Assembly (NCBI GenBank): GCA_023379675.1
Contig: JAMCPL010000010.1
Coordinates: forward strand, 51,021 to 115,020
Length of the DNA stretch: 64,000 bases
Direction of reading: 5' to 3'
From: Actinomycetota bacterium
Lineage (GTDB): Bacteria > Actinomycetota > Acidimicrobiia > Acidimicrobiales > JAMCPL01
This document shows, piece after piece, positions 40,267-64,000 of this stretch. The notes under the pieces are model-generated. The model ran no database searches and was not told where the DNA came from. It saw only the letters and a program-made list of their open reading frames with translations. The position numbers were made by a program, and so were the translations under genes. Within the stretch, counting starts at the first letter, position 1; each line of letters opens with the position of its first letter.

Positions 40267-40845
40267 ATGATGCGGAAACACGTGACAATCGATAATCTTT
40301 CTGGTAAGGAGAGCATGGAGTCAGGAGGGAGGCCGGATCGCGGCCCAGGCATGCTCGAGACCGGTTCGGTCCTAGGCGGCGCTAGCGGTAGCGCTGCGAG
40401 TAGCGACACAGGCGGCGGCGGTGATGATCAGCCACCTGCCACAGAGACGGTAGGCCAGCCTGCCAAGGTCATGAGGATCGGGATGATGGTCAGGCAGTTG
40501 CTGGAAGAGGTACGCCAGGCACCGCTCGACGAAGCCAGCAGGGTGCGGATGAAGGAGATATATGAGACCTCTGTCGCTGAGCTGGCTGGAGCTCTGAGTC
40601 CCGAGCTCTCCGAGGAACTTGATCGCCTGTCCATACCTTTCGAGGGGACCGCACCCTCGGAGGCTGAGCTTCGGGTGGCTCAGGCTCAGCTTGTGGGGTG
40701 GCTGGAAGGGCTCTTTCATGGCATCCAGGCCACGCTGGTAGCCCAGCAGATGGCCGCCAGGGCTCAGCTGGAGGAGATGCGGAGCCGGGAGCTGCCCTCT
40801 GGCATGCAGGACACCGTTGCGCATAGACCGGGCACCTATCTCTGA
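40267..40845 (+). CDS. bpa: Bacterial proteasome activator Bpa/PafE-like (DUF2587)
   Basis: AKVMRIGMMVRQLLEEVR..LDEASR.R..EIYETS..EL...LSPEL..EL..L.....PSEAELR.AQAQLVGWLEGLFHGIQ with a C-terminal ..PGTYL* (compare the GQYL 20S-docking motif). The start is uncertain (ORF track 40186). Confidence 0.75.
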   Translation: MMRKHVTIDNLSGKESMESGGRPDRGPGMLETGSVLGGASGSAASSDTGGGGDDQPPATETVGQPAKVMRIGMMVRQLLEEVRQAPLDEASRVRMKEIYETSVAELAGALSPELSEELDRLSIPFEGTAPSEAELRVAQAQLVGWLEGLFHGIQATLVAQQMAARAQLEEMRSRELPSGMQDTVAHRPGTYL

Positions 40846-40896
40846 TCTTTCGCTATCTCTGATCTTTCGCTATCTCTGACCTTTCCCTATCTCGAG
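40837..40896 (+). repeat. 17-nt tandem repeat x3.5 (TATCTCTGATCTTTCGC) beginning inside the last bpa codons
   Basis: Units lie at 40837-40853, 40854-40870 and 40871-40887 (2 mismatches), with a partial unit at 40888-40896. The first unit contains TAT CTC TGA, which encodes Y-L-stop of bpa. Confidence 0.9.
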
Positions 40897-40938: not shown

Positions 40939-41047
40939 ACACGATCTGTTTTGTAGCTTCAAGAGCCATTGCGCCGGTGAAATTGTTTGATGAGGTGGGT
41001 CGCATATACTACACGATCCGTTTTGTAGCTTCAAGAGCCATTGCGCC
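40939..41047. repeat. Repeat-spacer-repeat unit 1: 37-nt direct repeat x2 (1 mismatch) with a 35-nt spacer
   Basis: ACACGATC[T/C]GTTTTGTAGCTTCAAGAGCCATTGCGCC occurs at 40939-40975 and 41011-41047. The spacer is GGTGAAATTGTTTGATGAGGTGGGTCGCATATACT. Confidence 0.9.
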
Positions 41048-41188
41048 AGGTGCATCGTGTCGCTTGACGACCGAGGATGCGTCGGGACGTGGGTTGTGCT
41101 AATGATTGTAACCATAGGCCGCGACCACCGGCGAACCGGCTCCGTGGTCTGCATGGCGCACCACTACTAGTGATAGAGGAGGTCCATA

Positions 41189-44100
41189 TTGAGCGGTACG
41201 AAGTCATTTGTGCACTTGCATACTCATACTGAATTTTCCATGCTGGACGGCGCGTCCAGGATCGATGATCTCATTGATGCATGCTTGGCGGACCGCCAGC
41301 CGGCAATCGCCATCACTGATCATGGGAACCTGTACGGGGTTCTCGACTTTTATGAAGCATGCAGGAATAAAGGCATAAAGCCGATCATCGGCCTGGAGGC
41401 ATACATGGCCGCTGAATCCCGCTTCGAGCGGCCTGTTGCCAGAGGTAGGCTGGACGATGACATGGGTGGGGAATCGGAGAAGGGTTCCAAGGTCTACTAC
41501 CACCTCATAGTATTGGCGGAGACATCCGCCGGCTACAAAAATCTCATGAAGATAGCCTCCTATGGTTCCGTGGACGGTGGTTACTACTATAAGCCCCGGA
41601 TCGATTGGGAAATACTGGAGACATTCCACGAAGGCCTGAACGTCACTACGGCGTGCCTGGGAGGGCTCGTGCCACAGGCGCTGATTGCGGAAGATACCCA
41701 GAGGGCCGAGAAGCTGGCAGGCCGTTTACAGGACATCTTCGGGAAAGATCACTTTTTTGTCGAGATACAGGACCATGGGATTGCCGATCAGCGCCGTATC
41801 TTGCCTGCCCTGGTCAAGCTTGCCCGCAAACTGGATGCTCCGCTTGTCGCTACCAATGATAGCCACTACATACATAGGGAAGACGCGTTGGCTCATGATG
41901 CCCTGCTCTGCATACAGACGCGCAAACCCAAGGACGATCCAAGCCGGCTCAAGTTCGAAGGCACCGAGCATTACCTGAAAACGAACCAAGAGATGCGTGA
42001 CGTTTTCCGGGAATTTCCTGATGCATGCGACAATACCATCGAGATCGCCGAACGCACTCATGTGGAGATCGACTTCGGTTATGACGCGCTGCCGGAGTAT
42101 CCTCTCCCCTCGCATATTACCGTCTCCATGCCGGGTGCCTCGTACAAGGAGCGTGGCGATGCATATTTGAAACAGGTCGCTTACGAGGGCGCGGAGAAAC
42201 GGTACGGCTCACCGCTGGAGGAACATGTGAATCAGCGGATTTCTTATGAATTGTCAGTGATCTCGCAGATGGGGTTTTCCTCGTATTTCTTGATTGTGGC
42301 GGACCTGGTGGATCATGCCAAGAAGTCCGGCATCAGGGTAGGTCCGGGCCGTGGGTCGGCGGCGGGGTGCTGCGTGGCATATTGCCTTGGGATAGTGGAA
42401 CTGGATCCCATTCGCTACGATCTTCTGTTCGAGCGGTTTCTCAACCCTGGGCGCAAGCAGATGCCCGATATCGATATGGATTTTGACGAGCGCTACCGTG
42501 GCGAGATGATCAATTATGCCGCCAGGCGTTACGGAGAGGACCATGTTGCCCAGATCATTACGTTTTCCACCATAAAGGCCAGGGCTGCGGTGAGGGACGC
42601 TGCAAGGGTGCTTGGCTATCCATATGTGGTGGGCGACAAGATCGCAAAGGCGATGCCTCCTCTGGTCATGGGCCGCGATACGCCACTGAAGGCCTGTTTC
42701 GAAAATGTGCCGGGTCATGAGGACGGGTACAGGGTTGCGGGCGATCTACGAGAGATGTACGAGACGGACGAGGATGTAAAGCAGGTGGTGGATGTCGCAC
42801 GCGGGCTGGAGGGATTGCGTCGCCAGGACAGCATACATGCAGCGGCGGTGGTGATCACCCGTGAGTCGCTTATGGAATATCTTCCCGTACAGCGCAAGCC
42901 TGAGCAGGGAAGGGACTTGTCTGAAGCTCCTTTGGTTACGCAGTACGAGATGCACGGGGTGGAGAAATTAGGGCTCTTGAAGATGGACTTTCTGGGTCTG
43001 CGCAATCTTTCCGTGATAACGCGTGCCATTGAAATCATTGAACAGTCCACAGGAGAAGAAGTCGACATCGACAAGGTGCCATTGGATGACACCGAGGTCT
43101 ATTCCATGCTATGCAAGGGAAACTCTATAGGTATATTCCAGCTGGAAGGCAGCCAGATGCGTAGCTTGATGAGGTCGCTGCAGCCTACCTGTTTCGACGA
43201 CATCGCGGCCCTGGTGGCTCTTTACAGGCCTGGCCCGATGGCAGCCAATATGCATCGTGACTATGCAGACAGGAAAAATGGTCGTGCTCCGATCACGTAC
43301 CTACATGATGACCTCGAACCAATATTGAAAGATACTTACGGCTTGATGATCTATCAGGAGTCGGTGATGAGGGTGGCACAGCGTTTTGCCGGCTACAGCC
43401 TCGAGGAGGCGGACAATCTGCGCAAGGCATGTGGCAAGAAAGATCGTGACCTGATTGCCAAGGAACGAGATAAGTTTGTCTCGGGATGTGTGGAGAGCGG
43501 GTACGGGGAAAAGCTTGGCACCCAGTTGTTCGACATCATAGAGCCATTTGCCGATTATGCATTCAACAAGTCCCACTCGTATGGCTACGGGCTTATAGCG
43601 TATCAGAATGCCTGGTTGAAGGTGCATTACCCGGTGGAGTACATGTGTGCCCTGCTGTCATCGGTGAGAGACGATAAGGATAAGACCGCCGTTTACCTGT
43701 CGGAGTGCAAGTCCATGAATATCGAGGTACTGGTGCCCGATGTCAATCGGTCTCAGGTGGACTTCACCCCGCTGCATCAGGGAGGGGAGGACTGCATACT
43801 CTTTGGATTGGCGGCCGTACGCAACGTAGGTACCTCTATTGTAGAGAAGATCATCGAGACGCGTGATCAAGGCGGTGCATTCCAGGATTTCCATGACTTC
43901 TGCACGAGGGTGCCGCAGGCTGTGTTGGGACAGAAGCCGCTGCAGTCGTTGATCCTCGCGGGTGCTTTCGATTCACTTGGGCATAAGAGAAAGGGCTTGC
44001 TCGACAGTGCAGAGGCCATCTCCAGGCAGGTACAGTTAAGGCGGAAGGAAGAGGAAGCGGGAGTGATGACCCTCTTTACGATGTTGGAGGAGAACGGGGC

Positions 44101-44800
44101 GGGGGGAGGTGGCGCGCATGAACCTAAGTCGATGGAGATACCGGATGTCGAGATGGGGATCAGTGAAAAGCTGGCTCGCGAGAAGGAGATGCTTGGACTT
44201 TACGTGAGCGGGCATCCGCTGGATGGTTTCGAGAGAGCGGTAAGGGCGGCGGCCGGCATGAGTATAGCCGATCTGATCCTTCCCATCCTGACCGGTGATG
44301 AGGACCTCGCGCAGGCACGCGAAGGCATAACGGTCACATTGTGTGGTGTTGTTACCTCCACGAAACCCAGACGTACCAAGAAAGGCGATCCGATGATGAC
44401 CTTTATCCTTGATGACACCACCGCCTCCATAGAGGTGACGGCTTTCTCCAAGGCGCTGGAGACATCACAGATTGATGTGGTGGATGACAGGATACTGCTG
44501 GTCAAGGGTCGGCTGGATACTCGTGATGATGAGCCGAAAGTGATTGCGATCTCGTTGTCGGATCCACAGTTGCGTCCCGCCGATCGTGATCTGCACATAA
44601 GCATTCCAGGTGAACTTTTGGATCGTTCCAGGGTTGAACAACTGCAGAAGCTGTTGGCTGGTTATCCTGGAGAAGAGAGGGTGGTGGTTACCGCTGGCGA
44701 GAGGACGTTCAGATTGCCGCCATCGGTCAAGGTCGATTCCAGGAGAGGTCTGCTGGCTGAGCTCAGAGAACTGTTCGGCGATTCGATAAAGGTGGCCTAA
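41189..44800 (+). CDS. dnaE: DNA polymerase III alpha subunit
   Basis: PHP domain FVHLHTHTEFSMLDGA with GLLKMDFLGLRNL, FNKSHSYGYG and an OB-fold C-terminus. The TTG start is preceded by GGAGG. Length is 1203 aa. Confidence 0.95.
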   Translation: MSGTKSFVHLHTHTEFSMLDGASRIDDLIDACLADRQPAIAITDHGNLYGVLDFYEACRNKGIKPIIGLEAYMAAESRFERPVARGRLDDDMGGESEKGSKVYYHLIVLAETSAGYKNLMKIASYGSVDGGYYYKPRIDWEILETFHEGLNVTTACLGGLVPQALIAEDTQRAEKLAGRLQDIFGKDHFFVEIQDHGIADQRRILPALVKLARKLDAPLVATNDSHYIHREDALAHDALLCIQTRKPKDDPSRLKFEGTEHYLKTNQEMRDVFREFPDACDNTIEIAERTHVEIDFGYDALPEYPLPSHITVSMPGASYKERGDAYLKQVAYEGAEKRYGSPLEEHVNQRISYELSVISQMGFSSYFLIVADLVDHAKKSGIRVGPGRGSAAGCCVAYCLGIVELDPIRYDLLFERFLNPGRKQMPDIDMDFDERYRGEMINYAARRYGEDHVAQIITFSTIKARAAVRDAARVLGYPYVVGDKIAKAMPPLVMGRDTPLKACFENVPGHEDGYRVAGDLREMYETDEDVKQVVDVARGLEGLRRQDSIHAAAVVITRESLMEYLPVQRKPEQGRDLSEAPLVTQYEMHGVEKLGLLKMDFLGLRNLSVITRAIEIIEQSTGEEVDIDKVPLDDTEVYSMLCKGNSIGIFQLEGSQMRSLMRSLQPTCFDDIAALVALYRPGPMAANMHRDYADRKNGRAPITYLHDDLEPILKDTYGLMIYQESVMRVAQRFAGYSLEEADNLRKACGKKDRDLIAKERDKFVSGCVESGYGEKLGTQLFDIIEPFADYAFNKSHSYGYGLIAYQNAWLKVHYPVEYMCALLSSVRDDKDKTAVYLSECKSMNIEVLVPDVNRSQVDFTPLHQGGEDCILFGLAAVRNVGTSIVEKIIETRDQGGAFQDFHDFCTRVPQAVLGQKPLQSLILAGAFDSLGHKRKGLLDSAEAISRQVQLRRKEEEAGVMTLFTMLEENGAGGGGAHEPKSMEIPDVEMGISEKLAREKEMLGLYVSGHPLDGFERAVRAAAGMSIADLILPILTGDEDLAQAREGITVTLCGVVTSTKPRRTKKGDPMMTFILDDTTASIEVTAFSKALETSQIDVVDDRILLVKGRLDTRDDEPKVIAISLSDPQLRPADRDLHISIPGELLDRSRVEQLQKLLAGYPGEERVVVTAGERTFRLPPSVKVDSRRGLLAELRELFGDSIKVA

Positions 44801-44830
44801 CCGTGTGCCGGTTCAGGTCGAATGTGCCAG

Positions 44831-44855
44831 CCGGATGCCGTCCATGGGCATCCGG
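44831..44855 (+). terminator. 9-bp GC-rich hairpin downstream of dnaE (CCGGATGCC-N7-GGCATCCGG)
   Basis: It is a perfect inverted repeat 31 nt after the dnaE stop. It has no U-tract, as in I-shaped actinobacterial terminators. Confidence 0.4.
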
Positions 44856-44983
44856 TGCGGCTGGGGGCGTGGACCCGTGCGCCGGGTTCTGCCGTCCGGC
44901 GCAGGTCAGGACCGATGGAGTACGCAAGCTGGACGGGTGACTTGGTTCTGGGTACCAGAGGCGTGATAAGCTGTTAGTGGAGA

Positions 44984-45682
44984 GTGGTTATGGGATTTGA
45001 AGTTGACACAAGAGATTGTTCCATCCTGAGTGATTCCGAGTTCGAGGCCATGGCTGAGCTGGCAGGTGGAAGAGCTGGATTGTTCGATATAGGGTTTCTT
45101 TCTAAGCAGAGGGACGAGTGGGTGCTGGTCTGTACGGTGAAGGAAGGCTCGAAGTTGAGGGCTTATTCCTTTTTCACCCTCGAAAGGATTGGTGGTACAC
45201 CAGCAGTGCTGATCGGTGTGGCCGATAGCGACGGAACCGGGAAGTCTGCAAAGGCGGTGGATCTGCTGCTGGCGGAGCACTTCAGAAAGGCGGTACTGGC
45301 CTTTCCCGACGAAGACGTGCTGGTGTGCGGGATGGCGATCTTTCCTGCCGTATACTCGGTGTTCGGCGGTCTGAACGATGTCGTTCCAAGACCTGGATAC
45401 AAGCCGACTGGCGAGGAAAGAGCGTGGGCTAGGCGTATTGCAAGACGGTTCAGCGCCGATGGCCAGATAGATGACAGGAACTTCGTGTTGAACTGCGGTG
45501 GTCGGCCCACTACGGGTGTGCTCAATCTGGGGAAGAGCCGTACAGGCGAGGAACCGGACCATGACATCATGTCGCTTTTTGGAGGGATAGATCATGCTTC
45601 TGGCGATAGGATTGTGGTGTGCGGGTGGGCCATGGCGGAAGATCTCGCATCGGGGGCGTTGCTCAAGAGGCCAAGCGGGTAG
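44984..45682 (+). CDS. Hypothetical protein (232 aa)
   Basis: Long ORF with a GGAGAG-like purine tract upstream. No family was recognised. An equally long antisense ORF (44906..45595) makes the strand less certain. Confidence 0.45.
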   Translation: MVMGFEVDTRDCSILSDSEFEAMAELAGGRAGLFDIGFLSKQRDEWVLVCTVKEGSKLRAYSFFTLERIGGTPAVLIGVADSDGTGKSAKAVDLLLAEHFRKAVLAFPDEDVLVCGMAIFPAVYSVFGGLNDVVPRPGYKPTGEERAWARRIARRFSADGQIDDRNFVLNCGGRPTTGVLNLGKSRTGEEPDHDIMSLFGGIDHASGDRIVVCGWAMAEDLASGALLKRPSG

Positions 45683-45696
45683 TCACGCTCTAAGCC

Positions 45697-45805
45697 GTCG
45701 TGCCAGTGTGTGTTTCCACGGGTGCCAGAAGCCTGCGTTCCTGAGGTTGCTCTGTTCACCGAATCGGTGTCGTGCCAGTGTGTGTTTCCACGGGTGCCAG
45801 AAGCC
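45697..45805. repeat. Repeat-spacer-repeat unit 2: perfect 37-nt direct repeat x2 with a 35-nt spacer
   Basis: GTCGTGCCAGTGTGTGTTTCCACGGGTGCCAGAAGCC occurs at 45697-45733 and 45769-45805. The spacer is TGCGTTCCTGAGGTTGCTCTGTTCACCGAATCGGT. Confidence 0.92.
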
Positions 45806-45894
45806 CCAGGAATGTGCAGGCAAGCTGTTGCAGGAGTGGTGTACCGGTGGGTTGGATTGTACAGCGAGGCATCAGGCGCGTCACAGTATCCTGT

Positions 45895-46647
45895 TCAAGG
45901 ACGGGGGATCAACATTGCCAGAGTCTTGTAACAATGGCCGTCATGTGGTGCGTCCAAGGCCACCAGCAGGCAATAGGGGCGAAATCCTATTGCTTCCTCG
46001 AGTTCCTTGGCTTGGAGCGTTCCGCTCTTGGTCATGCTGAGGATGCGTTGCAGATTTCTGCTGGAGACCGGCATTATTGTGTCCACCGTACCGGAGGTCA
46101 GCCTTGCCCATGATGAGCCGTCGTCCCGTAGGAACAATAATATATGGTCCACCTTCTTGATCAGGGCGACCGATGGGTGTTGCCCGTTGAAATCCCAATA
46201 CGGTGCGGACCAGCCTGGGAATCCGAGCAAGTTCTTCGGGAGGGGGGTCGCAATCTCCTTCAGCAGCATCCGGGCGAATCGGGCCGCCAGGAAGCCATGC
46301 AGCTGGGGAGTACCGGTAACGGTGATGGCGTCTGGAAATGCTGGATCCTCGGCACTTGTTTCTGTGGAGCACTCCGCCGACAGGACGTCAAACGACTTCT
46401 CTTCCTGGGTGGGAGCTGTTTCGACATCTGGCGACATACCGGCTTGCTGGCTGGTGTTACCGCCTATATGAGCAATGTTATCATTCATATAACGATCATC
46501 TCGTAGTCGTATCATGCTATGCCTGTAGGGGTCGATTCCTATGACATCATTGCCAACGTCGGCAAGGAACACGACAACTTGCTGACCAGAGAGTTTTGAG
46601 CGGAGAGAACGCAGGCGCCTACCCGTGAGTGGCCTGGATCTCTTCAA
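45895..46647 (-). CDS. Hypothetical protein (250 aa), possibly DNA-binding
   Basis: The N-terminal LTGRRLRSLRSKLSGQQ.. segment is faintly XRE-HTH-like, followed by an acidic Ser/Thr linker and a C-terminal globular part. No family was recognised. Confidence 0.5.
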   Translation of the reverse strand: MKRSRPLTGRRLRSLRSKLSGQQVVVFLADVGNDVIGIDPYRHSMIRLRDDRYMNDNIAHIGGNTSQQAGMSPDVETAPTQEEKSFDVLSAECSTETSAEDPAFPDAITVTGTPQLHGFLAARFARMLLKEIATPLPKNLLGFPGWSAPYWDFNGQHPSVALIKKVDHILLFLRDDGSSWARLTSGTVDTIMPVSSRNLQRILSMTKSGTLQAKELEEAIGFRPYCLLVALDAPHDGHCYKTLAMLIPRP

Positions 46648-46837
46648 GCGTGATGCCTTTCAAGTGGCGGTTGGCTGGACATGTGCAATTCCCATGTATG
46701 CATGTGCGCCATTATACTCATGCCCGGCGTGCGCTTGCTACCCGGTGCCGACGCAGGCGATGTCGAGGGAGCGCCATTATGCTCATGCCAGCTGCTTGTT
46801 TAGCGCAATGAACCTCAATATTGCTATGATTGTAGGG

Positions 46838-47611
46838 ATGGAGATCAGACTTGATGGGAAGGTTGCCCTGGTTACCGGCGGTTCCAGGGGTATCGGGTTT
46901 GCCATAGCATCCAGGCTTGTGGAAGCAGGAGCAGATGTGATGATCACCTCGCGCAAGGCTGATGCGTTGGCTGCCGCAGCCGGCAGGTTGGCTGCATCAA
47001 ACCGGAGGGTGGAGTGGATGACGGCTCATGCAGGAGACCCTCGCCAGGCAGCAGGGTGTGTCAAGGAAACTATTTGCAGGCTTGGAAGCGTCGACATCCT
47101 CGTGAACAACGCTGCCACCAATCCGTACTTCGGGCATATCATGGACATTGACGAGAGGATGGCCTCGAAGACCGTCGAAGTCAATCAGCAGGGGCTTCTC
47201 ATGTGGTCAAAGTTTGCCTGGCATGAATGGATGGAGGAGAACGGTGGCTGTATTTTGAATATGGCATCCGTGGGTGGCCTAGAGGTGGAGCCTGCCATAG
47301 GCTGGTACAACGTCACCAAGGCGGCCGTCGTCCACCTCACGCGCCAGATGGCATATGAGATGTCGCCAGGCGTCAGGGTCAATGCATTGGCGCCCGGATT
47401 GGTGAAGACCGACTTCGCCAGGATGCTTTGGGATGGTTCGCACGGGGATGCCATTGCAGGAAACTTGCCATTGCAACGACTTGGCGAACCTGACGACATC
47501 GCTAGGCTGGCTCTGTTTGTCGTGTCGGATGCCGCTTCGTGGATTACCGGCAATGTCTTTGTCATCGACGGGGGGGCAATGGTAATGCCTGGCGGGGGCA
47601 TCAGCCGATGA
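46838..47611 (+). CDS. Short-chain dehydrogenase/reductase (FabG-like)
   Basis: KVALVTGGSRGIGFAIA, NNAA and YNVTKAAVVHLTR (YxxxK) are present. The start is taken at MEIRLDGK (46838) rather than ORF-track 46625. Confidence 0.88.
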   Translation: MEIRLDGKVALVTGGSRGIGFAIASRLVEAGADVMITSRKADALAAAAGRLAASNRRVEWMTAHAGDPRQAAGCVKETICRLGSVDILVNNAATNPYFGHIMDIDERMASKTVEVNQQGLLMWSKFAWHEWMEENGGCILNMASVGGLEVEPAIGWYNVTKAAVVHLTRQMAYEMSPGVRVNALAPGLVKTDFARMLWDGSHGDAIAGNLPLQRLGEPDDIARLALFVVSDAASWITGNVFVIDGGAMVMPGGGISR

Positions 47612-47709
47612 TGCTGCTTGCTCGCAGATGGCGGTTCCAGTGTAGCGGCTACGCTGGAAAGAGGGATGCCAAGCGAGCCAAGAAGTCGGCATGGAGCCGT
47701 GGCAGGGCG

Positions 47710-48138
47710 CTACTGGCCACGGGCTTTTTTCACCATATCAGCCAGCGTGAAGGAGGCGAGGTGGTCATGCATGTGCCTTCCTACATCCTGCCATACCGCC
47801 AGCAAGACACATTGTCCCTCGTGTTCGCAGGCTCCGTCCTCGTGAGGTTGTCCGAAATCACCAGCAGTGATCGGCCCGTCGACAGCACTTACCACCTGTG
47901 CAAGAGTGATGTCTTCCGGTGGATGTCCAAGGACATATCCACCGCCTATCCCTCGCTTGGATCGGACCAGGCCGGCTCCCTTCAATGACAGTAGTATCTG
48001 CTCCAGATATGGTTGTGGTAAGCCGGTACGCTCGGCGATGTCCTTTACCGATGTCGGCCCGGTCTCGTCTGAGTGCAGCGCCAGGGAGAGAAGGGCCCTG
48101 CTTGCATAGTCGCCTCGTGTCGAAACTCTCACACTCAA
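47710..48138 (-). CDS. Rrf2 family transcriptional regulator
   Basis: RVSTRGDYASRALLSLA.....TSVKDIAERTGLPQPYLEQILLSLKGAGLVRSKRGIGGGYVL matches the family. Confidence 0.92.
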   Translation of the reverse strand: MSVRVSTRGDYASRALLSLALHSDETGPTSVKDIAERTGLPQPYLEQILLSLKGAGLVRSKRGIGGGYVLGHPPEDITLAQVVSAVDGPITAGDFGQPHEDGACEHEGQCVLLAVWQDVGRHMHDHLASFTLADMVKKARGQ

Positions 48139-48154
48139 ATGTTACTTCCCTGGC

Positions 48155-49405
48155 GTGGTGCTCATGAACACTATCGACAAAGATCCCGTGCTGCCTATTT
48201 ATAGTGGGGCATGCATATGCAATGTCATGCCGGTCATTACGGGCATACTGGCTGCCGGAAACGGCGCAGGAGGGATTGACGGTGCCGGTGGTGGGCAGCA
48301 GAGAGTGCTTGCCACGAGCTCGCCACTATATCGTGACGGTAATAGTAGTGACCCGTCGTTGGATGATGGCGATACGCCCGACTGGGTACCGTCATGCCTC
48401 TCCGAGGCTAGGCAGATTGCCGTACTCGTGGTCGATGGTCTTGGATGGCTTCAAATGCAACGGTACGAATCGCCGGAGACGTTAATAGAGATGGAAGGTG
48501 GGTGGATCACATCGGTGGCGCCCACCACTACTGCAGCGGCACTGACATCACTTACTACCGGGCTGCCCCCGAGCGTACATGGAATGGTCGGCTACCGGAT
48601 GAAGGTGCGGCGACATGACACCGACGATGTGCTCAACGCACTACGATGGAGGACGGAGTCTGGAGGTGATGCGAGAACCGAAGTAAGGCCGAGAGAGTTC
48701 CAGCCAGCTGCGCCATTCGGTGGCAAGAGCGTGCCGGTGGTGGCAAGAGCGGACCTGTGTGGCACTGGTTTCACGGCAGCTCATCTCTACGGATCCCGTC
48801 ATATATCCTGGAAAGCGCCGTCCTCGATCCCGGTGGAAGTGGAGAGGCTGCTGAAGTCAGGCGAACCTCTTACATATATATATTACGATGGTGTGGACAG
48901 GGTTGCGCATGCTTACGGGCTCGGAGATCATTATGAGGCGGAACTGGGGTATGTGGACGACCTTATTGCGGGTATACTTGAAGTGCTGCCTGATGGTGCC
49001 GCCCTAGTGGTTACCGCCGACCACGGGCAGGTACATATGGATGGACCTGCCATCGAGATGGATCCGTCCATCTTGGAGATGGTTAACCTGATATCAGGTG
49101 AAGGCAGGTTTCGCTGGTTGCATTGCAAGGGCGAGGTGCTGCCGGATCTACTGGAAGCCGCAGAGTACATTTACGGCGATCTGGCATGGGTTTGCAGCCG
49201 TACCCAGATCATGGATGAGGCATGGATGGGGCAAGGCATGGCGGCAGCGGTGGCGGAACGATTGGGCGACATTGCGCTGGTTGCCAGGGAACCGGTTGCG
49301 TTCATGGATCCTGCGGATGTCGGTGAGAGTAGGTTGAAAGCCAGGCACGGCTCTCTTACTCGTGAAGAGATCATGGTGCCTTTTGTGGCTTACCTGAATG
49401 GCTGA
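48155..49405 (+). CDS. Alkaline-phosphatase superfamily protein (type I phosphodiesterase/nucleotide pyrophosphatase-like)
   Basis: VVDGLGW..SVAPTTTAAALTSLTTGLPPSVHGMVGY and YYDGVDRVAHAYG..VVTADHGQV are metal-site motifs of the AlkP/PglZ-type fold. Confidence 0.7.
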   Translation: MVLMNTIDKDPVLPIYSGACICNVMPVITGILAAGNGAGGIDGAGGGQQRVLATSSPLYRDGNSSDPSLDDGDTPDWVPSCLSEARQIAVLVVDGLGWLQMQRYESPETLIEMEGGWITSVAPTTTAAALTSLTTGLPPSVHGMVGYRMKVRRHDTDDVLNALRWRTESGGDARTEVRPREFQPAAPFGGKSVPVVARADLCGTGFTAAHLYGSRHISWKAPSSIPVEVERLLKSGEPLTYIYYDGVDRVAHAYGLGDHYEAELGYVDDLIAGILEVLPDGAALVVTADHGQVHMDGPAIEMDPSILEMVNLISGEGRFRWLHCKGEVLPDLLEAAEYIYGDLAWVCSRTQIMDEAWMGQGMAAAVAERLGDIALVAREPVAFMDPADVGESRLKARHGSLTREEIMVPFVAYLNG

Positions 49406-49486
49406 GCATGTTAGTGGCTGAGCATGTTCCTTCTCGTATCCGTACACCCGACGTTCACGCCACGCATAGGTATCCCCGCCGGATGT

Positions 49487-52195
49487 TTACGCAGATGGCT
49501 GCCCACCATCGTTTTCCTGGGCTGGGGCAATCCCGTAATGCCTCCATGTGGATGAGCGTGAGGGCAGATCATCCGCTTGTGGCTCCGGGCTGTAGGTTGC
49601 CTGCCCGTGCGATGCCCGGTCGGATGCTTGGCTGCGGAATGTATCGACCATCTTGAGCATGGCATGCACATCCACAGGCTTGGTCATGTACCTGCAAGCA
49701 CCCTGGCTGATCAGGCGTTCCAGGCTGCCTGGCGTCGCGTCGGCAGACACAATGACCACCGGTGTGCCTGAGAGGTCGCCTCCAGCAGTGATCTCACGTA
49801 GCACGTCCTCGCCGGACATATCTTCGAGATGCAAATCGAGAAGGATCAGATCAGGATGGTACTGGCGAGCGATATCGATTCCCAGCCTCCCGAGCGCCGC
49901 AGGGATGAGCCTGATCGAAGGTCGCTTGGAGAGTATCTCTTCCATGAGCCTTGCGCTTGCAACGTTATCCTCTATGTACAACACAGTGAAGAGCCGCTCG
50001 GCCTCGCTACCCGTTGCTGCGGATTCCGGGCTACCTGCAGGTTGCATTTCGGTGCCCGCGTTTCCGGAGTCGAGGACGGCATCCGCTGCCTGCGAACCGC
50101 TGGTAATTCCTGCTTCCATGGGGTCGCCGGCAGGATTTTCGTTCGAACCTGCAGAGGCGGTACTCTCGTTCACGGACACCTCCACGCAAAATGTACTTCC
50201 CTTGGCGGGCTCGCTGGTGACCGTGATGGTACCTCCCATCGCCTCCACGAGCCTTCTGGTGAGGGCAAGGCCAATCCCCGTACCAGGTATCGATGTGCTG
50301 TCCGCGCTCAGCCTGGTAAATGGCGTGAATATGGCTTCCAGCGCATTGGCCGGGATGCCCCTTCCGGTATCGACTACGGATATCCTGACGGTACGTCCCC
50401 TATCGCATTGCTGTTGCTCCAGATTGACCATGACGCTTCCTCCTTTTATGTTGTATTTGATGGCGTTGTCCAGAAGGTTCAGCAGCACCTGCATCAGCCG
50501 CTGGCTGTCTGCCTTTACGGCCAGGTAATTTCCCACATCGTTACGATTGAACGCCAGTGAAACATTACTGGTGAATGCCAGCGGGGAGATGATGTCCATT
50601 GCTTCACGAATACTTGGCACTACCATGACCGGTTCGATGGAAAGGCTGAGGCGTCCGGCTTCGACGCGTGCGAGATCAAGCACTTCGTTGATCAGCGATA
50701 GCAGGTGCTTACCGCCTTTTTCGATCTGGACGACATATTCGCGGATCTGATCGGGAATCTCGTCCATCTTGATAAGTTGGCTGAAGCCGAGGATGGAGTT
50801 CAGCGGGGTGCGGAGTTCATGACTCATCCTGGACAGGAACTCCGACTTTGCCTGGTTTGCTTTGTCCGCTTCCTGCTTTGCCGATTTGAGCTCATCTTCT
50901 TTCGTCACCTGATCTGATATGTCCCGCGCGGCGGTGACCGTGCCGACGACCCTGCCGTCCTTGCTGGTCAGCGGCCTGCACCGTATCTCGTAGGTTTTGA
51001 CTTCCCCAGTTTTCCCACGTGCCCGAACCCTCATAGGTAAGGACGCGGTGCGCGGCGAGGCAATGGTGGTCGCTTGCAGTTCGAGTGAGGGCCGGCGGTC
51101 CTCCGGCAGGACATGTTGGAAGTTGCACATCAGCTCTCTTGCCCTATCCATAGTGATACCAAGTGAGCGTTCCACCTCCGGGCTTACCCTGATCACCTTG
51201 CCGGCCGTATCCCTCAGGGTGATGATGTCGGGGACGGCCTCGAATATGGAACTTATGAGGCGCTCACGGTCAAGGATTTCGTCCCTCTGGTCGCGCAAGC
51301 TCTTTTCCCGGTGGCGAAGCTCCTGCGAGGCTTCCTTCAACCCAGCGGCGATTTGCCCGATCTCGTCCTTGCCAACGGGTAGGTCCGTCAGCTCCTCTCC
51401 CTTGTGCAGGCGGAGAGACGCCATCTCAATTGCTGTCAATCTCTTGGACACTCCCGATGATATTATCAGCATTACCACTACGCCGCCTATGATGGCTATC
51501 AGCACAGCGGCAAGGGACACAGATCCACCGGCATCGTGCCGCGCCGCCAGCGTTGCCTTTGCATTTGACATTATGCCGTTCTCATTACTGATGAAGCGCC
51601 TGACCGTGGATTCTGCCGACGTTATCCCTCCAAACACTCCTGCAAGTAGGTGTCGTACCGGGCCAGGTAGGGATACCGATGAATGGCTGGATCCTGTGGA
51701 GGGTCCTGTGGAGCCGCTCAGCGAGGCTACATCGGAGGTAAGCGCGGCCAGCTTGGACAGTACGGATGACAATTGCCCAGAGAGGGCGCCTGCCATGGCA
51801 ATTGCTCTGGGGTGGTGATCAGACAAGGATTGGAGATTTCTTACGTTGGCTGTGATGTCGATGCGTTCAGCGCGGATGTCCGCGAGGGCCGCCATGACGG
51901 TCTGGCGACCAGTGGTGGCGTGAGGCGTACTCCCAAGAGGCTGGGCCAGCTTTACCAGTATCTGTCCCAGATCCGATTCGGCGTCATGAGCCTCATTCTC
52001 GGCCCTGATCGTGTTGTCGTAAGCCGATTGTGCACTTGCGATGGACGGATTGACTGCGAAGCCAGCCAATGCCAGATAGCCGACGAGTATGAGCAATGGC
52101 ACTCCAACCACCACGCTGGCCTTGTACTTTATCTTGAGATCCCGTGTCAGCCGGGAAGGAGCGAAAGGGAACTTGCGGCCTGACGAACTGGTCAT
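49487..52195 (-). CDS. Hybrid sensor histidine kinase/response regulator (TM-sensor, HAMP, PAS, HisKA, HATPase, REC)
   Basis: H-box FLSRMSHELRTPLNSILGF, N-box LLNLLDNAIKY, G-boxes DTGRGIP and GTGIGLAL, and a C-terminal receiver (VLYIEDN..DLILLDLHLEDMSG..TKP) are present. Confidence 0.9.
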   Translation of the reverse strand: MTSSSGRKFPFAPSRLTRDLKIKYKASVVVGVPLLILVGYLALAGFAVNPSIASAQSAYDNTIRAENEAHDAESDLGQILVKLAQPLGSTPHATTGRQTVMAALADIRAERIDITANVRNLQSLSDHHPRAIAMAGALSGQLSSVLSKLAALTSDVASLSGSTGPSTGSSHSSVSLPGPVRHLLAGVFGGITSAESTVRRFISNENGIMSNAKATLAARHDAGGSVSLAAVLIAIIGGVVVMLIISSGVSKRLTAIEMASLRLHKGEELTDLPVGKDEIGQIAAGLKEASQELRHREKSLRDQRDEILDRERLISSIFEAVPDIITLRDTAGKVIRVSPEVERSLGITMDRARELMCNFQHVLPEDRRPSLELQATTIASPRTASLPMRVRARGKTGEVKTYEIRCRPLTSKDGRVVGTVTAARDISDQVTKEDELKSAKQEADKANQAKSEFLSRMSHELRTPLNSILGFSQLIKMDEIPDQIREYVVQIEKGGKHLLSLINEVLDLARVEAGRLSLSIEPVMVVPSIREAMDIISPLAFTSNVSLAFNRNDVGNYLAVKADSQRLMQVLLNLLDNAIKYNIKGGSVMVNLEQQQCDRGRTVRISVVDTGRGIPANALEAIFTPFTRLSADSTSIPGTGIGLALTRRLVEAMGGTITVTSEPAKGSTFCVEVSVNESTASAGSNENPAGDPMEAGITSGSQAADAVLDSGNAGTEMQPAGSPESAATGSEAERLFTVLYIEDNVASARLMEEILSKRPSIRLIPAALGRLGIDIARQYHPDLILLDLHLEDMSGEDVLREITAGGDLSGTPVVIVSADATPGSLERLISQGACRYMTKPVDVHAMLKMVDTFRSQASDRASHGQATYSPEPQADDLPSRSSTWRHYGIAPAQENDGGQPSA

Positions 52196-52387
52196 CGTGC
52201 CGTTTTCTTACAACAGACCACTCGTATTACCATATTGCCCCAATCCGTTCCATAGGCGCTCCGGGACAGCCCAATGATCAACCCTCGAAACCATCCAGGA
52301 AGCCATATCCAGTATTCTCAGTATAGCCCTGGTGGCACAGGTTTGCTTGCAATGTGAATAGCTGATCACAATTTGTGCCGTAATGCC

Positions 52388-52499
52388 GAAGTGGCGGTCT
52401 ACACGGGTTCGACACCTTCAGGCCCCAAAGGGTCTAACGGGAATCTTGGACCAATCGACTCATGAAGTGGCGGTCTACACGGGTTCGACACCTTCAGGC
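52388..52499. repeat. Repeat-spacer-repeat unit 3: perfect 36-nt direct repeat x2 with a 40-nt spacer; one copy covers the LysR stop codon
   Basis: GAAGTGGCGGTCTACACGGGTTCGACACCTTCAGGC occurs at 52388-52423 and 52464-52499. The spacer is CCCAAAGGGTCTAACGGGAATCTTGGACCAATCGACTCAT. Confidence 0.92.
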
Positions 52500-53398
52500 A
52501 TAGGTTGCCCATGTTTGGCTGTTCTCGTCACTTCTTGCAGTGAGGCGATTGCCGCCTTGGCCGATGCCGACGGTATGCTCCGCGATCGGCGGGCTATCCC
52601 GACTTCACGAGTGGCTATGCCGTCTACCTTTACCAGCCTGACGCGATCTTTTAGATGGAATGGGACCGCACTGGTGGGCAACAGGGCAAATCCGTTACCG
52701 TCGAAGGCGAGCGATGCTATCAGGCGTATCCCGTCCAACTCGGCGGCAGCCTTTAGACTGACACCGTGAGACATTGCCGCCTGGTCCAGTTCGTTACGGA
52801 ATGTGGTTCCAGGCGCTGGCAGCAGCAGTTCGAGGTGGGCCAGATCGGCCATCTGGATTGAGTCCATGCCCGGAACTGGATCCGCGTCACGCGGTACCAC
52901 GAGGTTGATTTCTTCTGTGAAGAGGGGGGTGGCGGTCAACTCCTTGCTGGTTACCGGGAGCGTCATGACAGCAAAGTCCAGCCTACCTGTAATCAGGAGC
53001 TGGCTGAGGGTGTTACTGGTTCCGTCATGTATCACCAAACGAATGGCAGGGTGAGCCCGTTTCAGGGTGGCATGCAGCCTTGGCGTGATCCATCGTGCCG
53101 TGGTACCTATCATGCCGATCCGTACGGTACCGGACAGTTCTGCCTTCAGCGCGCCTATGTCGTCCCATATGGCTTCCATCTCTCCGAGCATCCTGTACGC
53201 GCGGGCGGCAACCGCTTCACCTTCTGGGGTGAGATCCGACGTCGATCTATCGATGAGTACCGTCCCAAGCTCGTTCTCCAGCTTTGTCACGTGTGCTGAG
53301 ATATTTGATTGGACTGTTCCAAGCAAGTCCGCTGCGCTGGAAAAGGAACCTTTTTCATGTACCGCCAGTAGGGCTCGTAGCTGTTTTATATCCATCAC
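52475..53398 (-). CDS. LysR family transcriptional regulator
   Basis: MDIKQLRALLAVHEKGSFSSAADLLGTVQSNISAHVTKLENELG HTH followed by a LysR substrate-binding domain. Confidence 0.92.
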   Translation of the reverse strand: MMDIKQLRALLAVHEKGSFSSAADLLGTVQSNISAHVTKLENELGTVLIDRSTSDLTPEGEAVAARAYRMLGEMEAIWDDIGALKAELSGTVRIGMIGTTARWITPRLHATLKRAHPAIRLVIHDGTSNTLSQLLITGRLDFAVMTLPVTSKELTATPLFTEEINLVVPRDADPVPGMDSIQMADLAHLELLLPAPGTTFRNELDQAAMSHGVSLKAAAELDGIRLIASLAFDGNGFALLPTSAVPFHLKDRVRLVKVDGIATREVGIARRSRSIPSASAKAAIASLQEVTRTAKHGQPMPEGVEPV

Positions 53399-53670
53399 TT
53401 ATTATGATATCAAGTATCTATAGTAGCTGCTTGACAGATTGAGGCATAAGGTACATAATATTTACATAGATAGCAGGAGCTGGATACCCCCTCTCCGTTT
53501 CCTGGCTATACAGATGGAGAAGTCGAGCGCCCCCCCTTGGCTTCTCCATCGCTATTTTGGCGGAGATCTACTTTCCATACTGTACAGCGCTAGCGGTTTC
53601 ACCGCGTATGCCGCACATGCCGGTCGTCGGGTGTGTCATTATTTGTAGGATAAAATAGTTTAGCTATAAT

Positions 53671-54375
53671 ATGTCCATGGTGAGGAACTCCAGAGCTACT
53701 GGCGGCGGCGCTGTGAGTGGCGGCAACGGCATGTACGGAGGTGAAGACGGCACCGAACACGGCTGCATGGCCGAGGGTGGCGGCAGCATTGGCGTCAAGG
53801 GTGGCGGCCAACCCATCAGTGATGAAAGTGGAGGCAGTGGCATGGACACGGATATGCCACGACGGCATGCCGGTGAGTACCCAGCCGGCATCGTGCATGA
53901 CGGTAATGGCGACGTGTCTACTGAGGCAGTCGATATATTTCTTCTGATAGTGCATCTGGCCAGAGGGCTACGATGGCACGGTTCGCAGATGCCTGAGGAT
54001 CTCCGCACGATGGTGAGAAATGCAGGATTGGCTCCAAGGCACATCACTGCCCTTGTGCAGATAGCAGCGGCAGGGGAGATGAGCGTGAGTCTACTGGCGG
54101 ATAGGCTGGGGGTCGCCCTGACCACTGCCAGCCTACTTGCTTCTCAGCTGGCTTCGCAGGGATTGGTGGAGCGAAAAGAGGATCCTGAGGATCATCGGCG
54201 TACATTGATACGGATTCCCGAGCGATTCGATGACATCACATCTGGCATGTTCAAGGGGCTCCTGGAACCTATAGAGCAGGTGCTCGCTTCCATCAGTGCA
54301 CAGGACCGCGGCGTGCTCGAATCTGCATTGCGGAAGTTGGTCGAGGCAGTGACTGCGGCTGCATGTGGACCGTAG
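53671..54375 (+). CDS. MarR family transcriptional regulator (Gly-rich N-terminal extension; start uncertain)
   Basis: LAPRHITALVQIAAAGEMSVSLLADRLGVALTTASLLASQLASQGLVERKEDPEDHRRTLIRI is a winged HTH. An internal Met at 53842 is an alternative start. Confidence 0.8.
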   Translation: MSMVRNSRATGGGAVSGGNGMYGGEDGTEHGCMAEGGGSIGVKGGGQPISDESGGSGMDTDMPRRHAGEYPAGIVHDGNGDVSTEAVDIFLLIVHLARGLRWHGSQMPEDLRTMVRNAGLAPRHITALVQIAAAGEMSVSLLADRLGVALTTASLLASQLASQGLVERKEDPEDHRRTLIRIPERFDDITSGMFKGLLEPIEQVLASISAQDRGVLESALRKLVEAVTAAACGP

Positions 54376-54410
54376 GGTGAATCTACCTCACAAGTGGAGG
54401 GTACATCGTT

Positions 54411-55295
54411 GTGCGTGGTGCATGGGAATGGAGGATGGCTGGCCAGCCGCTGCGGGAGTGCTGTAACGGAGCGGCTACTATGGGTACCGTGAAACGCATA
54501 CCTTCCACGGACCCAGCCAGACCGGCTGCAGGTTTACGCGATACCGCAGAGAGGCGAAGCCGGCCTGCGCAATCTTACAGGATTGATTTCAAACTTCCAG
54601 CGGAAGTCGAGGAGGAGATTGCTGGGCTTACCGCCAGTAAGGAATCCACTACCAGGGAGAGGATACTCGATATGCTGGCAAGGGCGGCGCGGGCATATGA
54701 CAGGGGATATTTTAAGGAATCGTTGCAGTATGCCGGCAAGGTGCTGAGGCAGTTGCCCGCTTCTGCGTCTGCACGCGAACTCGCCGGTCTCTCCTATTAC
54801 GGTCTTGGCAAATGGCACGAGGCATCGACACGGTTGCAGTGGGTGGTCGATTCGACTGGGGATATGAGCCAGGTTCCGGCTCTGATGGATTGCCACAGGG
54901 CAATGGGCAACTACAGTAAGGTTGCTGATCTGTACGATTTACTTCGCCGGTCATCACCTCTGCCCGAGGTGCTCGCAGAGGGACGTATAGTTGCCGCGGA
55001 GGCGCTCGCAGATGAGGGCAGGATCATAGAGGGGATAGAGTTACTCGAACGGGCCGGTGTACGTAAGCTGATCCGCAACCCCAAGGAGAGGCATTACAGG
55101 CAGTGGTACGTCCTTGGTGATCTCTACGAGAAGGCTGAGCATATCGCCACGGCAAGGCTCATGTTCAAGCGGGTGAGCGAGTGCGATGGCGGTGCAACGG
55201 ATGCAAAGGAGAGGCTCGACTTCATAGGGGGGAATGAGGTTCCCAGGCGACAGCGTCACCGTAGTTCAAGCGCCAGAGTGACAATGCCAGAGTGA
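54411..55295 (+). CDS. Tetratricopeptide-repeat protein
   Basis: TPR-like helices (AYDRGYFKESLQYAGKVL, GLGKWHEASTRLQWVV, MGNYSKVADLYDLL and others) with a basic C-terminus. The start is uncertain. Confidence 0.6.
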   Translation: MRGAWEWRMAGQPLRECCNGAATMGTVKRIPSTDPARPAAGLRDTAERRSRPAQSYRIDFKLPAEVEEEIAGLTASKESTTRERILDMLARAARAYDRGYFKESLQYAGKVLRQLPASASARELAGLSYYGLGKWHEASTRLQWVVDSTGDMSQVPALMDCHRAMGNYSKVADLYDLLRRSSPLPEVLAEGRIVAAEALADEGRIIEGIELLERAGVRKLIRNPKERHYRQWYVLGDLYEKAEHIATARLMFKRVSECDGGATDAKERLDFIGGNEVPRRQRHRSSSARVTMPE

Positions 55296-55490
55296 CGGCA
55301 CTATAGTGATGAGTGGCGTCCGTGATTGTAGCGACCGGACAGGACAGTGCGAGCTTGGTCGTGGTCATGGAAGGAGTTGAGCCTTTTAAGTGACGCTATG
55401 CGACAGGGCTGTGGGTGCGGGCTGTTGAATGGCCTTGCGGCCGGTGTGGTCGTATAGACGGGAAAAGACTGGAGAAGGAGGAAAGTGCAG

Positions 55491-56579
55491 ATGTTCGGAG
55501 TACCCAGTACGGGAAATGTCACAAGTATGGTGGATTTGGAGGCGCTACTTGGTGCGGATGCCGAGGACCTGCTGAGCCATACCTGCAAGGGTATTCCTAA
55601 AGAGATGCTGGAGTTGCCAGGGCCGGATTACCTGGACAGAGTGATGTCGGTCAGTGACCGTAACGCAACCGTCCTACGCAATCTGGGCACGCTCTATTCG
55701 CATGGCAACCTTGGAGGGACGGGATACTTGTCCATTCTCCCGGTGGATCAGGGCATCGAGCACTCAGCTGCAGCGAGCTTTTCAAAGAATCCCGCGTATT
55801 TCGATCCGTTCAAACTCTGCGAGCTGGCCGTGGAAGGGGGTTGCTCCGGTATCGCAACCACCCTAGGAGTGCTTGGCATGACTGCGAGGAAGTATGTCCA
55901 CAAGATACCATTTATAGTCAAGCTCAACCACAATGATCTGCTCGTCTACCCCAACCGGTACGATCAGATCATGTTCGCGTCGGTTCGTCAGGCCGCGGAT
56001 CTGGGTGCGGTGGGTGTCGGTGCTACGATATACTTTGGGTCGGAGGAGTCCTCGCGGCAGCTACAGGAGGTGTCAAGTGCGTTTGCCGAGGCTCATAGGA
56101 TGGGAATGTTTACCGTGCTGTGGTGCTACCTACGTAACAACGCGTTCAAGACGCCGGACGCGGATTACCATGTCGCAGCCGATCTCACCGGGCAGGCCAA
56201 TCACATTGGTGTGACCTTGGAGGCAGATCTGATAAAACAGAAACAGCCTGAGCTGAACGGTGGCTATACGGCGTTGCACTTCGGCAAGACCGATCCTCTT
56301 GTATACGATACCCTTGCCACGGATCATCCCGTGGATCTTACCCGTTGGCAGGTGGTCAACTGCTATTCAGGTCGTATCGGGCTGATCAATTCCGGTGGTG
56401 AGTCAAAGGGGGACACTGATCTGGCACAGGCCGTGCGAACAGCTGTCATTAACAAGCGAGCCGGTGGGACCGGGCTCATTGTAGGGCGGAAATCCTTCCA
56501 GCGTCCCATGGATGAAGGAGTGAAGCTGCTCCACGCCATCCAGGGTGTCTTTGCTGACTCCCGGATCACCATAGCCTGA
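55491..56579 (+). CDS. fbaB: Class I fructose-bisphosphate aldolase (FbaB/DhnA type)
   Basis: It is close to the E. coli FbaB pattern ([17 protein letters not shown]...[47 protein letters not shown]). The start is taken at the ATG at 55491, 8 nt after GGAGGA. Confidence 0.88.
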
Positions 56580-56595
56580 CGTACTTCGGTCTGCT

Positions 56596-56711
56596 GCGGC
56601 CATTATGCCGCAGCCCGGTGTCTTTACCAGCACGCGGGCACGCCGGTCGTGAGCGCTACAATGCGATGTAATTAGGCGGCCATTATGCCGCAGCCCGGTG
56701 TCTTTACCAGC
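56596..56711. repeat. Repeat-spacer-repeat unit 4: perfect 36-nt direct repeat x2 with a 44-nt spacer; each copy carries a hairpin
   Basis: GCGGCCATTATGCCGCAGCCCGGTGTCTTTACCAGC occurs at 56596-56631 and 56676-56711. GCGGC-CATTAT-GCCGC forms a stem-loop. The first copy starts 17 nt after the fbaB stop. Confidence 0.92.
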
Positions 56712-56919
56712 TATCGGATCACCATAGTGTAGCGCGTAGAAAGCGTTAAGAAACCAGCTATTCGCGCTAACAACGCGTTAAAAGGCTTCCATTCCGGTAG
56801 CTACACGTGTATAACGGTGCATATGGTACTGATTGACGGATGCAGGCTATGACCTGGCCCGAGATATTACGGATAGTTCATGAGCTGCGGCATGGCGGCC
56901 GCAGCGGATCTGGAGAGTC

Positions 56920-63755: not shown

Positions 63756-64000
63756 CTATCTTACCGTCTCATCTCCCACCGTCTCATCTCCCACCGTCTC
63801 ATCTCCCACTTGGCCGGAATCGTCAGACTTTCCCAGGAGAGCGATGATCATGGCATCGGCAGCCAGGAAGATCACAGCTATCCAGGTAAGGGTGCTTGCA
63901 GTGGCAAACTGGGGTGCCCAGCCTGCGCCAGGCAGGAAACGTTCCACGGCCTGGCGATAGACCATGTATGTCCCGGTTGCCACTACGGTCGTGAGGGCGG
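63756..64000 (-). CDS. Membrane protein, 5' partial (runs off window end), with a C-terminal (GDETV)x3 repeat
   Basis: The frame is open to position 64000. It has a hydrophobic segment LTWIAVIFLAADAMIIALLG. It ends 4 nt upstream of the glpK-like start, so the two may form an operon. Confidence 0.5.
   Translation of the reverse strand, partial: ALTTVVATGTYMVYRQAVERFLPGAGWAPQFATASTLTWIAVIFLAADAMIIALLGKSDDSGQVGDETVGDETVGDETVR

Follow-up and report, generated by a model that had tools for sequence, protein, structure and literature searches.

The window analyzed here is a stretch of 64,000 nucleotides (nt) from an Actinomycetota bacterium of the order Acidimicrobiales (GCA_023379675.1, contig JAMCPL010000010.1, positions 51,021 to 115,020, forward strand). 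It carries the dcw cluster, the genes for IleRS, DnaE, a hybrid histidine kinase, a LysR protein and an aldolase, and kdpABC. It also holds four short units (u1 to u4) in which two copies of a direct repeat enclose an unrelated insert. The repeat, or target duplication, is denoted R and the insert S; a unit has the form R-S-R, and its period is R + S. The units are confined to the last 24 kb of the window, probably because the first 40 kb consists of tightly packed operons. The initial annotation had explained them as ectopic integrations of CRISPR-type spacers.

Repeat-insert-repeat units in the window

All four pairs were reproduced by the repeat search at the positions given in Table 1 and with the R/S sizes first reported (37/35, 37/35, 36/40, and 36/44 nt). 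The whole window was scanned at all offsets between 40 and 140 nt for direct repeats matching at 24/30 positions or more, and the output consisted of u1 to u4 plus one borderline repeat in a coding region. The comparison with shuffled controls that had been proposed was run on the window, and zero repeat pairs were obtained in the same scan of 20 dinucleotide-preserving shuffles. The borderline repeat (24/30 matches, offset 75), probably a coding repeat, falls within the FtsI/PBP gene and was excluded from the unit count. Sequence comparison bore out that the repeats and inserts of u1 to u4 are without similarity among themselves or to their flanks.

The units had been described as intergenic or as lying across a gene's last codons, and these placements were confirmed. 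u1 is located between the BPA stop codon (93 nt before the unit) and the dnaE start (141 nt beyond it), and u2 lies between two convergent genes of unknown function. The second copy of u3 covers the final 7 codons and the stop of the LysR gene (minus strand), which therefore remains intact. u4 is found downstream of the class I aldolase gene, where its target straddles the junction between the insert and the second repeat of an older unit.

The sequence of the window corresponds to contig JAMCVI010000011.1 (~37.8-101.8 kb) of the metagenome-assembled genome (MAG) GCA_023486005.1, and u1 to u4 were all present at 100% identity in a second MAG, GCA_027449425.1. u4 was complete in one JGI metagenome contig and in one ENA MEGAHIT contig, and it was identical across the independent assemblies L081, L087, L090, and L091. 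Logan SRA contigs overlapping u1, u4, and the older aldolase unit were identical where they covered the sequence and broke inside these units; for u1 this is the expected failure of a short-k assembler at a 37-nt repeat. An assembly artefact was ruled out by the recovery of the same sequence in independent assemblies from different assemblers.

The window and its flanks (81 kb of contig) were found to carry housekeeping genes only, including those for SMC, Ffh, UvrB, and RNase J. The reported lack of a cas gene or canonical array in the window was thereby confirmed and extended to the 81 kb. Rfam, with its CRISPR repeat families included, gave no match to the units.

Insertion polarity and site reuse

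The units were compared among four lineages. Lineage A is the window's own strain (GCA_023486005.1, GCA_027449425.1, and others), lineage B is its sister at ~91% nucleotide identity (L082-L085 and L089; assembly GCA_023489365.1; reference MAG TL1-4.bin29, JAKBVZ01), lineage C is an outgroup at ~80% identity (L088; assembly GCA_054636795.1), and lineage D is more distant, with a DnaE 71% identical (L001 and L002; MAGs TL1-2.bin40 and TL1-1.bin58). The closest DnaE among species-representative genomes was likewise 71% identical. No CRISPR array was found in ~230 kb from lineages A, B, and D, of which ~150 kb lies outside the window contig and has its genes partly annotated.

It had been predicted that relatives would hold a single copy of each repeat and no insert. 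This was seen for u1, u3, and u4, and for u2 in two sister strains. Since both lineage B and the outgroup L088 hold one copy of R and no insert at the u3 site, u3 was deduced to be an insertion in lineage A. At u4, exactly these 80 nt are missing from lineage B. At the u1 site of lineage B (L085), R1 occurs once and the u1 insert is absent; the same sequence has a degraded unit of its own ~27 nt downstream, with a target that overlaps R1 by 10 nt. The u2 site is single copy in L083 and L084, while L082, L085, and L089 carry there an unrelated 45-nt insert with a 32-nt imperfect repeat, the boundaries of which are only 3 and 2 nt off those of lineage A. Sister or outgroup lineages thus showed the ancestral state, with a single copy and no insert, at the sites of u1, u3, and u4, at that of the older aldolase unit, and at those of the units specific to B. 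An unselected listing of all indels between A and B over 26 kb yielded one further B-specific event of exactly 72 nt downstream of kdpC. It is concluded that u1 to u4 are recent insertions accompanied by target duplication and that the same sites were hit independently in separate lineages.

An old tandem duplication that later diverged, already discounted in the initial annotation, was rejected because relatives lack the inserts and the inserts do not resemble the flanks. A 72-nt tandem duplication with one part overwritten was rejected as well, as the inserts hold no trace of flank sequence. An exact search with R2 in species-representative genomes, a set that does not include lineage A, gave no match. 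Strain variants of the aldolase hotspot were also sought; the JGI metagenome set is without this lineage, and the genome scan returned unrelated matches and the lineage B reference only.

A constant sum of repeat and insert

The statistics were computed on 22 curated events from lineages A, B, and D; an event in ftsY (53 + 19) stands outside this set and brings the total to 23. The period over the 22 events was 72.5 +/- 2.3 nt with a mode of 72, and it fell between 70 and 73 in 19 of them. R ranged from 27 to 47 nt and S from 23 to 45 nt (27-53 and 19-45 nt over all 23), and the two were strongly and inversely correlated (r = -0.90). The standard deviation of the period expected under independent R and S is 7.4 (permutation p < 1e-5). 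The period was tightest for the events with a hairpin insert, described below (72.1 +/- 0.5, n = 11), and it was 70-71 in lineage D versus 72 elsewhere. Decay of the repeat ends as the source of the variation in R was rejected, as the sequence past the repeat ends is unrelated between copies. What is conserved is therefore the overall length gained and not that of the duplication. The near-constant duplicated length that had been noted applies to the four window units (36-37 nt) and not to the full set; four events are too few, and therefore constant R and constant R + S could not be distinguished from the window alone.

Origin of the inserts

The inserts had been taken for mutually unrelated spacers. 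Over the full set this does not hold, as 12 of the 23 are pieces of a single hairpin family whose donors lie in the genome itself. The insert of the older aldolase unit and that of the lineage B event downstream of kdpC share a GC-rich hairpin with a consensus of approximately AGTCYGCTGCGGCCRCTATGCCGCAGCCCGTGCACTGG and a free energy of ~-10.7 kcal/mol. The hairpin pattern occurs twice in the window versus 0 times expected by chance, and it was found at at least nine further loci of the lineage B genome, with locus-specific flanking repeats at 9/9 of those listed. Among the matches listed, the hairpin was always accompanied by flanking duplications (13 complete copies at 11 loci, plus a half copy in ftsY).

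Two donors could be specified. In lineage B, the older aldolase insert is a 28/28-nt match, in reverse complement, to a hairpin located 240 nt away just upstream of kdpA; this donor hairpin is itself part of an older, degraded unit. The insert downstream of kdpC matches at 34/35 nt a stretch made up of the L113 insert and the adjoining 6 nt at the start of the target-derived repeat of L113; because these 6 nt are included, it was deduced to have been copied from the L113 unit or from one of its siblings. Copies of the hairpin have ragged ends, with left extensions of 1-12 nt and right extensions of 3-20 nt. Multi-unit arrays were seen only in L183 and L198, in each of which one insert is repeated; their growth is ordinary tandem expansion, with no new spacer acquired.

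In 10/13 events the hairpin is carried by the strand with negative GC skew, a bias that is only suggestive. The non-hairpin inserts, including the four of the window, are unstructured. No match was obtained when all inserts were compared to phages and plasmids (a check that had been proposed for the four window inserts), four insert cores and the hairpin to IMG/VR, or the hairpin to JGI metagenomes. Nor was a conserved motif resembling a leader-repeat junction present at the repeat ends. A 'GCC' target motif immediately before the junction in the window units failed to generalize, leaving a weak preference for C as the last base of R (7/9 hairpin-oriented events and all 4 window units).

Older units and further events

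The aldolase 3' end has been hit twice. The outgroup L088 has no unit there, while A and B share an older 73-nt insertion (38 + 35) of which the first repeat copy comprises the last 11 codons of the gene, the stop, and 2 nt. The 73-nt unit came first, in A and B, and u4 was then inserted in A across the insert/repeat junction. The hairpin of the older insert occupies positions 56594-56613 (-10.6 kcal/mol, z = -4.1). In lineage B, both 38-nt repeats are perfect. In lineage A, copy 2 differs from copy 1 by clustered multi-base changes (ACCAGCTAT for GCTGACTCC and GTGTAG for GCCTGA). This pattern suggests that patches were replaced in A or that gene conversion took place in B. Between A and B, the aldolase gene is also 95% similar, versus ~90% for its neighbors.

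The ftsY event is located in the N-terminal region of the gene, and the protein carries 'PSTVKGDISSEARGTHD' twice; its 19-nt insert corresponds to the left hairpin half and terminates within the loop. Genes survive such events because the repeat copy adjoining the gene body stays intact. In one hairpin unit of lineage B, the duplicated stretch consists of the final 25 nt of a tRNA-Pro(TGG) gene and the 12 nt downstream; the tRNA is left intact, and the arrangement resembles the attachment-site structure left by integrative elements.

Table 1. Positions and dimensions of the units and of other features (window positions unless another sequence is named; sizes in nt)
Feature	Location	Strand	Repeat copy 1	Insert	Repeat copy 2	Remarks
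u1		+	40939-40975	40976-41010 (35)	41011-41047	R 37, 1 mismatch
u2		+	45697-45733	45734-45768 (35)	45769-45805	R 37, perfect
u3		+	52388-52423	52424-52463 (40)	52464-52499	R 36, perfect
u4		+	56596-56631	56632-56675 (44)	56676-56711	R 36, perfect
Older aldolase unit	56544-56734	+	56544-56581	56582-56616 (35)	56697-56734	Copy 2 diverged; unit split by u4
Oldest unit, upstream of kdpA	56849-56949	+	56849-56878	Hairpin at 56885-56904	56920-56949 (kdpA start codons)	70% identity, period 71
ftsY event, lineage A	L220 3221-3345 (JAMCVI010000011.1 ~34.2 kb, 3.5 kb left of window)					In-frame; R 53 + S 19 = 72
Lineage D units						R/S 28/43, 33/38, 47/23; periods 71, 71, 70
Further hairpin loci of lineage B genome (at least 9)						R/S 44/29, 28/43, 37/35, 38/34, 36/36, 27/45, 37/35, 30/42, 31/41; periods 71-73
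tRNA-Pro(TGG) unit, lineage B	L192 7686-7835					Hairpin unit
Borderline direct repeat, FtsI/PBP gene			7898-7927		7973-8002	Not counted as a unit
17-nt tandem repeat	40836-40893					3.4 copies
15-nt tandem repeat	63763-63809					3.1 copies, perfect
95-nt miniature element, lineage B only	L082 16792-16886 (at window ~62291)					18-nt terminal inverted repeats
1.8-kb extra segment, lineage B	L085 1106-2923 (at window ~38821)	L085 reverse strand

Other length differences between the lineages were noted. A 17-nt tandem repeat, CTATCTCTGATCTTTCG, directly follows the BPA gene, ~45 nt before u1; at this position lineage B has ~1 copy and is 33 nt shorter. The copy number of a 15-nt tandem repeat, ACCGTCTCATCTCCC, at the start of a large AftD-like glycosyltransferase gene (minus strand) also differs between lineages A and B. 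The 95-nt element of L082 is bounded by the inverted repeats TGGTCTGTCCCGCAAATA and TATTTACGGGACAGATCA; it is a conventional small transposable element, unlike the 72-nt units, and is absent in the window's lineage. At the position where lineage B has 1.8 kb extra, the genes annotated on either side in the window, a short ABC-transporter ATPase and a short-chain dehydrogenase fragment, overlap, and the segment may therefore have been lost by deletion in the window's lineage.

Distribution across lineages

A scan for non-periodic direct repeats with offsets of 70-80 nt gave unit densities of 6.2 per 100 kb in lineage A, 7.8 in lineage D, and 14 in lineage B, the last being inflated by hairpin-targeted sampling. 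The scan of 1.6 Mb from other Acidimicrobiales returned no such units, its output being limited to lysine/alanine coding repeats that were in frame, and 0.8 Mb of unrelated genomes contained no such units. The process is confined to this group of related lineages. For an assumed genome of ~3 Mb, the density in lineage A would amount to a few hundred units per genome.

Alternative explanations

The least probable of the explanations considered is that the units are functional, i.e., selected copies of operator or terminator sites or structured RNAs, or that they are artefacts of assembly. The position of units at gene boundaries and the stable, potentially terminator-like hairpin formed by some inserts would agree with a function. 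The repeats, however, are arbitrary stretches of the local sequence, among them coding ends and the 3' end of a tRNA. Conservation of both copies and the spacer with covariation, named in the initial annotation as the sign of such a function, was not seen; the close relatives are without units, and nothing is conserved in which covariation could occur. Together with the lack of an Rfam match and the identity of the sequence across assemblers, the single-copy relatives and independent assemblies largely refute both versions of this reading. Ectopic Cas1-Cas2 integration, the explanation initially offered, is more probable than this and is still considered unlikely. Here, prespacers would be inserted at non-CRISPR sites by staggered attack, and gap repair would duplicate the target. 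The part of the proposal that concerns the product stands, as a short insert with a target duplication is indeed present and is missing in relatives. Repeats of 36-37 nt are typical of actinobacterial type III or type I arrays, the commonest geometry (36-38/34-36 nt), shared by about half of the units, resembles that of a CRISPR unit, and the four window units alone, with their constant R and variable S, fit the model. Existing units draw new insertions, u4 inside the older aldolase unit being an example. Capture of own DNA near earlier integration sites is known for E. coli, and off-target integration is known in vitro. The assignment to Cas1-Cas2 nevertheless failed against the full set of events. 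Cas1-Cas2 repeat length is set by rulers anchored in the repeat (PMC6698737 and references therein), and an integrase that takes prespacers of defined size would not shrink R exactly as S grows; the combination of 53 nt duplicated and 19 nt inserted lies well beyond its geometry. Half of the inserts derive from one hairpin family of the genome itself, no array with differing spacers was seen, expansions repeat one insert, no virus or plasmid match was obtained, and the targets share no leader-like or repeat-like motif. Neither a cas gene nor an array is present in the 81 kb of contig, and no array was found in the other loci. The same points separate the units from neo-CRISPR loci, for the spontaneous generation of which a passage of PMC6698737 cites Nivala, Shipman and Church (2018). 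They are like the present units in that a short insert and a target duplication of tens of nucleotides arise at a non-CRISPR site. The commonest unit size here (~37 + 35) is that of about one repeat-spacer, and existing units are hit again, but the quantity conserved is insert plus duplication (~72 nt) and not the duplication. The inserts, moreover, are ragged pieces of own DNA rather than uniform, largely foreign prespacers (S ranges from 19 to 45 nt, and 12/23 are the genome's own hairpin), protospacers were not found, and arrays re-duplicate the same insert.

Rather doubtful, too, is a very small mobile hairpin element served by a dedicated enzyme (an integrase, transposase, or HUH-type nickase) that makes long staggered cuts and measures insert plus stagger, with the hairpin-less inserts as mis-captured DNA. 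This explanation accounts for the constant association of the hairpin with flanking duplications. The tight period that differs between clades (72 versus 70-71) is what an encoded ruler would produce, and precise site reuse in independent lineages, the terminal C of R, and an orientation biased by GC skew are consistent with an enzyme. One copy ends within the hairpin loop, which is where HUH-type nickases cut. It is opposed by the copy ends, which are ragged by up to 20 nt where transposon ends are defined, by the lack of terminal inverted repeats, and by the many inserts, about half, that have neither a hairpin nor any shared sequence. In the small part of each genome that was examined, no candidate gene appeared. 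To our knowledge, no transposase yields target duplications of 27-53 nt or measures a sum. REP/REPIN sequences and miniature inverted-repeat elements resemble the units in consisting of a short GC-rich hairpin with near-identical copies that are intergenic or downstream of genes and possibly biased in orientation with respect to replication. They have defined ends and a fixed short target duplication or none. The units differ in their local duplications of 27-53 nt and ragged ends, with only the hairpin core conserved; they lack terminal inverted repeats and a conserved tetranucleotide, and about half carry unrelated cargo.

Comparison with minisatellites and illegitimate recombination

MIRU-type minisatellites are actinobacterial repeats of 50-80 nt that lie at gene boundaries, overlap stop and start codons, and vary in copy number; their units are homologous to each other across loci. 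The tandem expansion in L183 and L198 is similar. In the present units, by contrast, the insert alone is shared and the repeat is unique to the locus, and their origin by insertion is directly visible. Slippage of native sequence would cover only the later expansion of L183 and L198, as the insert is absent from the ancestral state. In the models of short-patch double illegitimate recombination and flap ligation, single-stranded DNA is taken up at replication, flaps are protected by hairpins, and ragged templated inserts result, with substitutions or expansions of variable size. We know of no such process with a fixed added length, with clade restriction, or with site reuse. Each known system thus shares features with the units, yet at least one defining feature of each was tested and was not found in them. 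In the literature searched, no bacterial process was encountered that adds a fixed length as duplication plus templated insert.

Proposed mechanism

The explanation we place first, though with a confidence that stops a little short of even, is a recurrent, lineage-wide insertion of a ~72-nt module made up of a 19-45-nt tract of own DNA and a compensating 27-53-nt target duplication. Insertion, duplication, a fixed added length, self-copied inserts, hairpin bias, site reuse, and later tandem expansion are all demonstrated. That the process is replication coupled rather than the work of Cas1-Cas2 is proposed with low confidence. In such a process, a short single-stranded DNA fragment from another locus would prime or join synthesis on the target template, and fragments bearing a hairpin would be favored by their resistance to nucleases and flap removal. 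The displaced or unpaired strand would then be kept and sealed at a set length of ~70-72 nt, possibly that of roughly one wrap of a single-stranded DNA-binding protein tetramer, a ruler that is conjectural, and the next round of replication would yield R-S-R with R + S fixed. Such a model would account for the constancy of R + S, for inserts that are ragged and self-derived, for the copy of half a hairpin, and for the weak strand bias.

Several observations weigh against the model. Neither an enzyme nor an intermediate was identified. The window inserts and the other non-hairpin inserts had no donor in ~0.27 Mb of related sequence. Donors can sit on different contigs, an arrangement that a simple template switch inside a single fork accommodates poorly, and junction microhomology is weak or absent. 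Three non-hairpin events exceed 73 nt (76, 77, and 80). The split of 36-38/34-36 nt in half of all events is CRISPR-unit-like and not predicted by flap processing; this mode, the restriction to one clade, and the precise reuse of sites are not readily explained by replication error. These three features favor instead a dedicated enzyme measuring R + S, and a dedicated integrase of this kind is considered nearly as likely as the replication-coupled insertion. What we tentatively propose is an apparently undescribed mode of DNA insertion that measures total length (~72 nt), with the hairpin as its most successful self-propagating cargo; it would place units at gene ends, at tRNA ends, and even in frame within genes.

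Implications

Should a dedicated or replication-coupled ruler underlie the 72-nt rule, the units would represent a new mutational or mobile process with products defined at single-nucleotide resolution. The events create terminator-like hairpins behind genes, duplicate gene and tRNA ends without breaking them, and add in-frame insertions of 24 codons. They are therefore a source of regulatory and protein variation. The units resemble minimal CRISPR arrays and will therefore lead to false 'orphan array' calls in MAGs. They are also the type of structure proposed to seed new CRISPR loci, and whether Cas1 takes part bears directly on the origin of arrays. Were the process linked to Cas1, it would instead reveal a novel mode of site selection by a CRISPR integrase.

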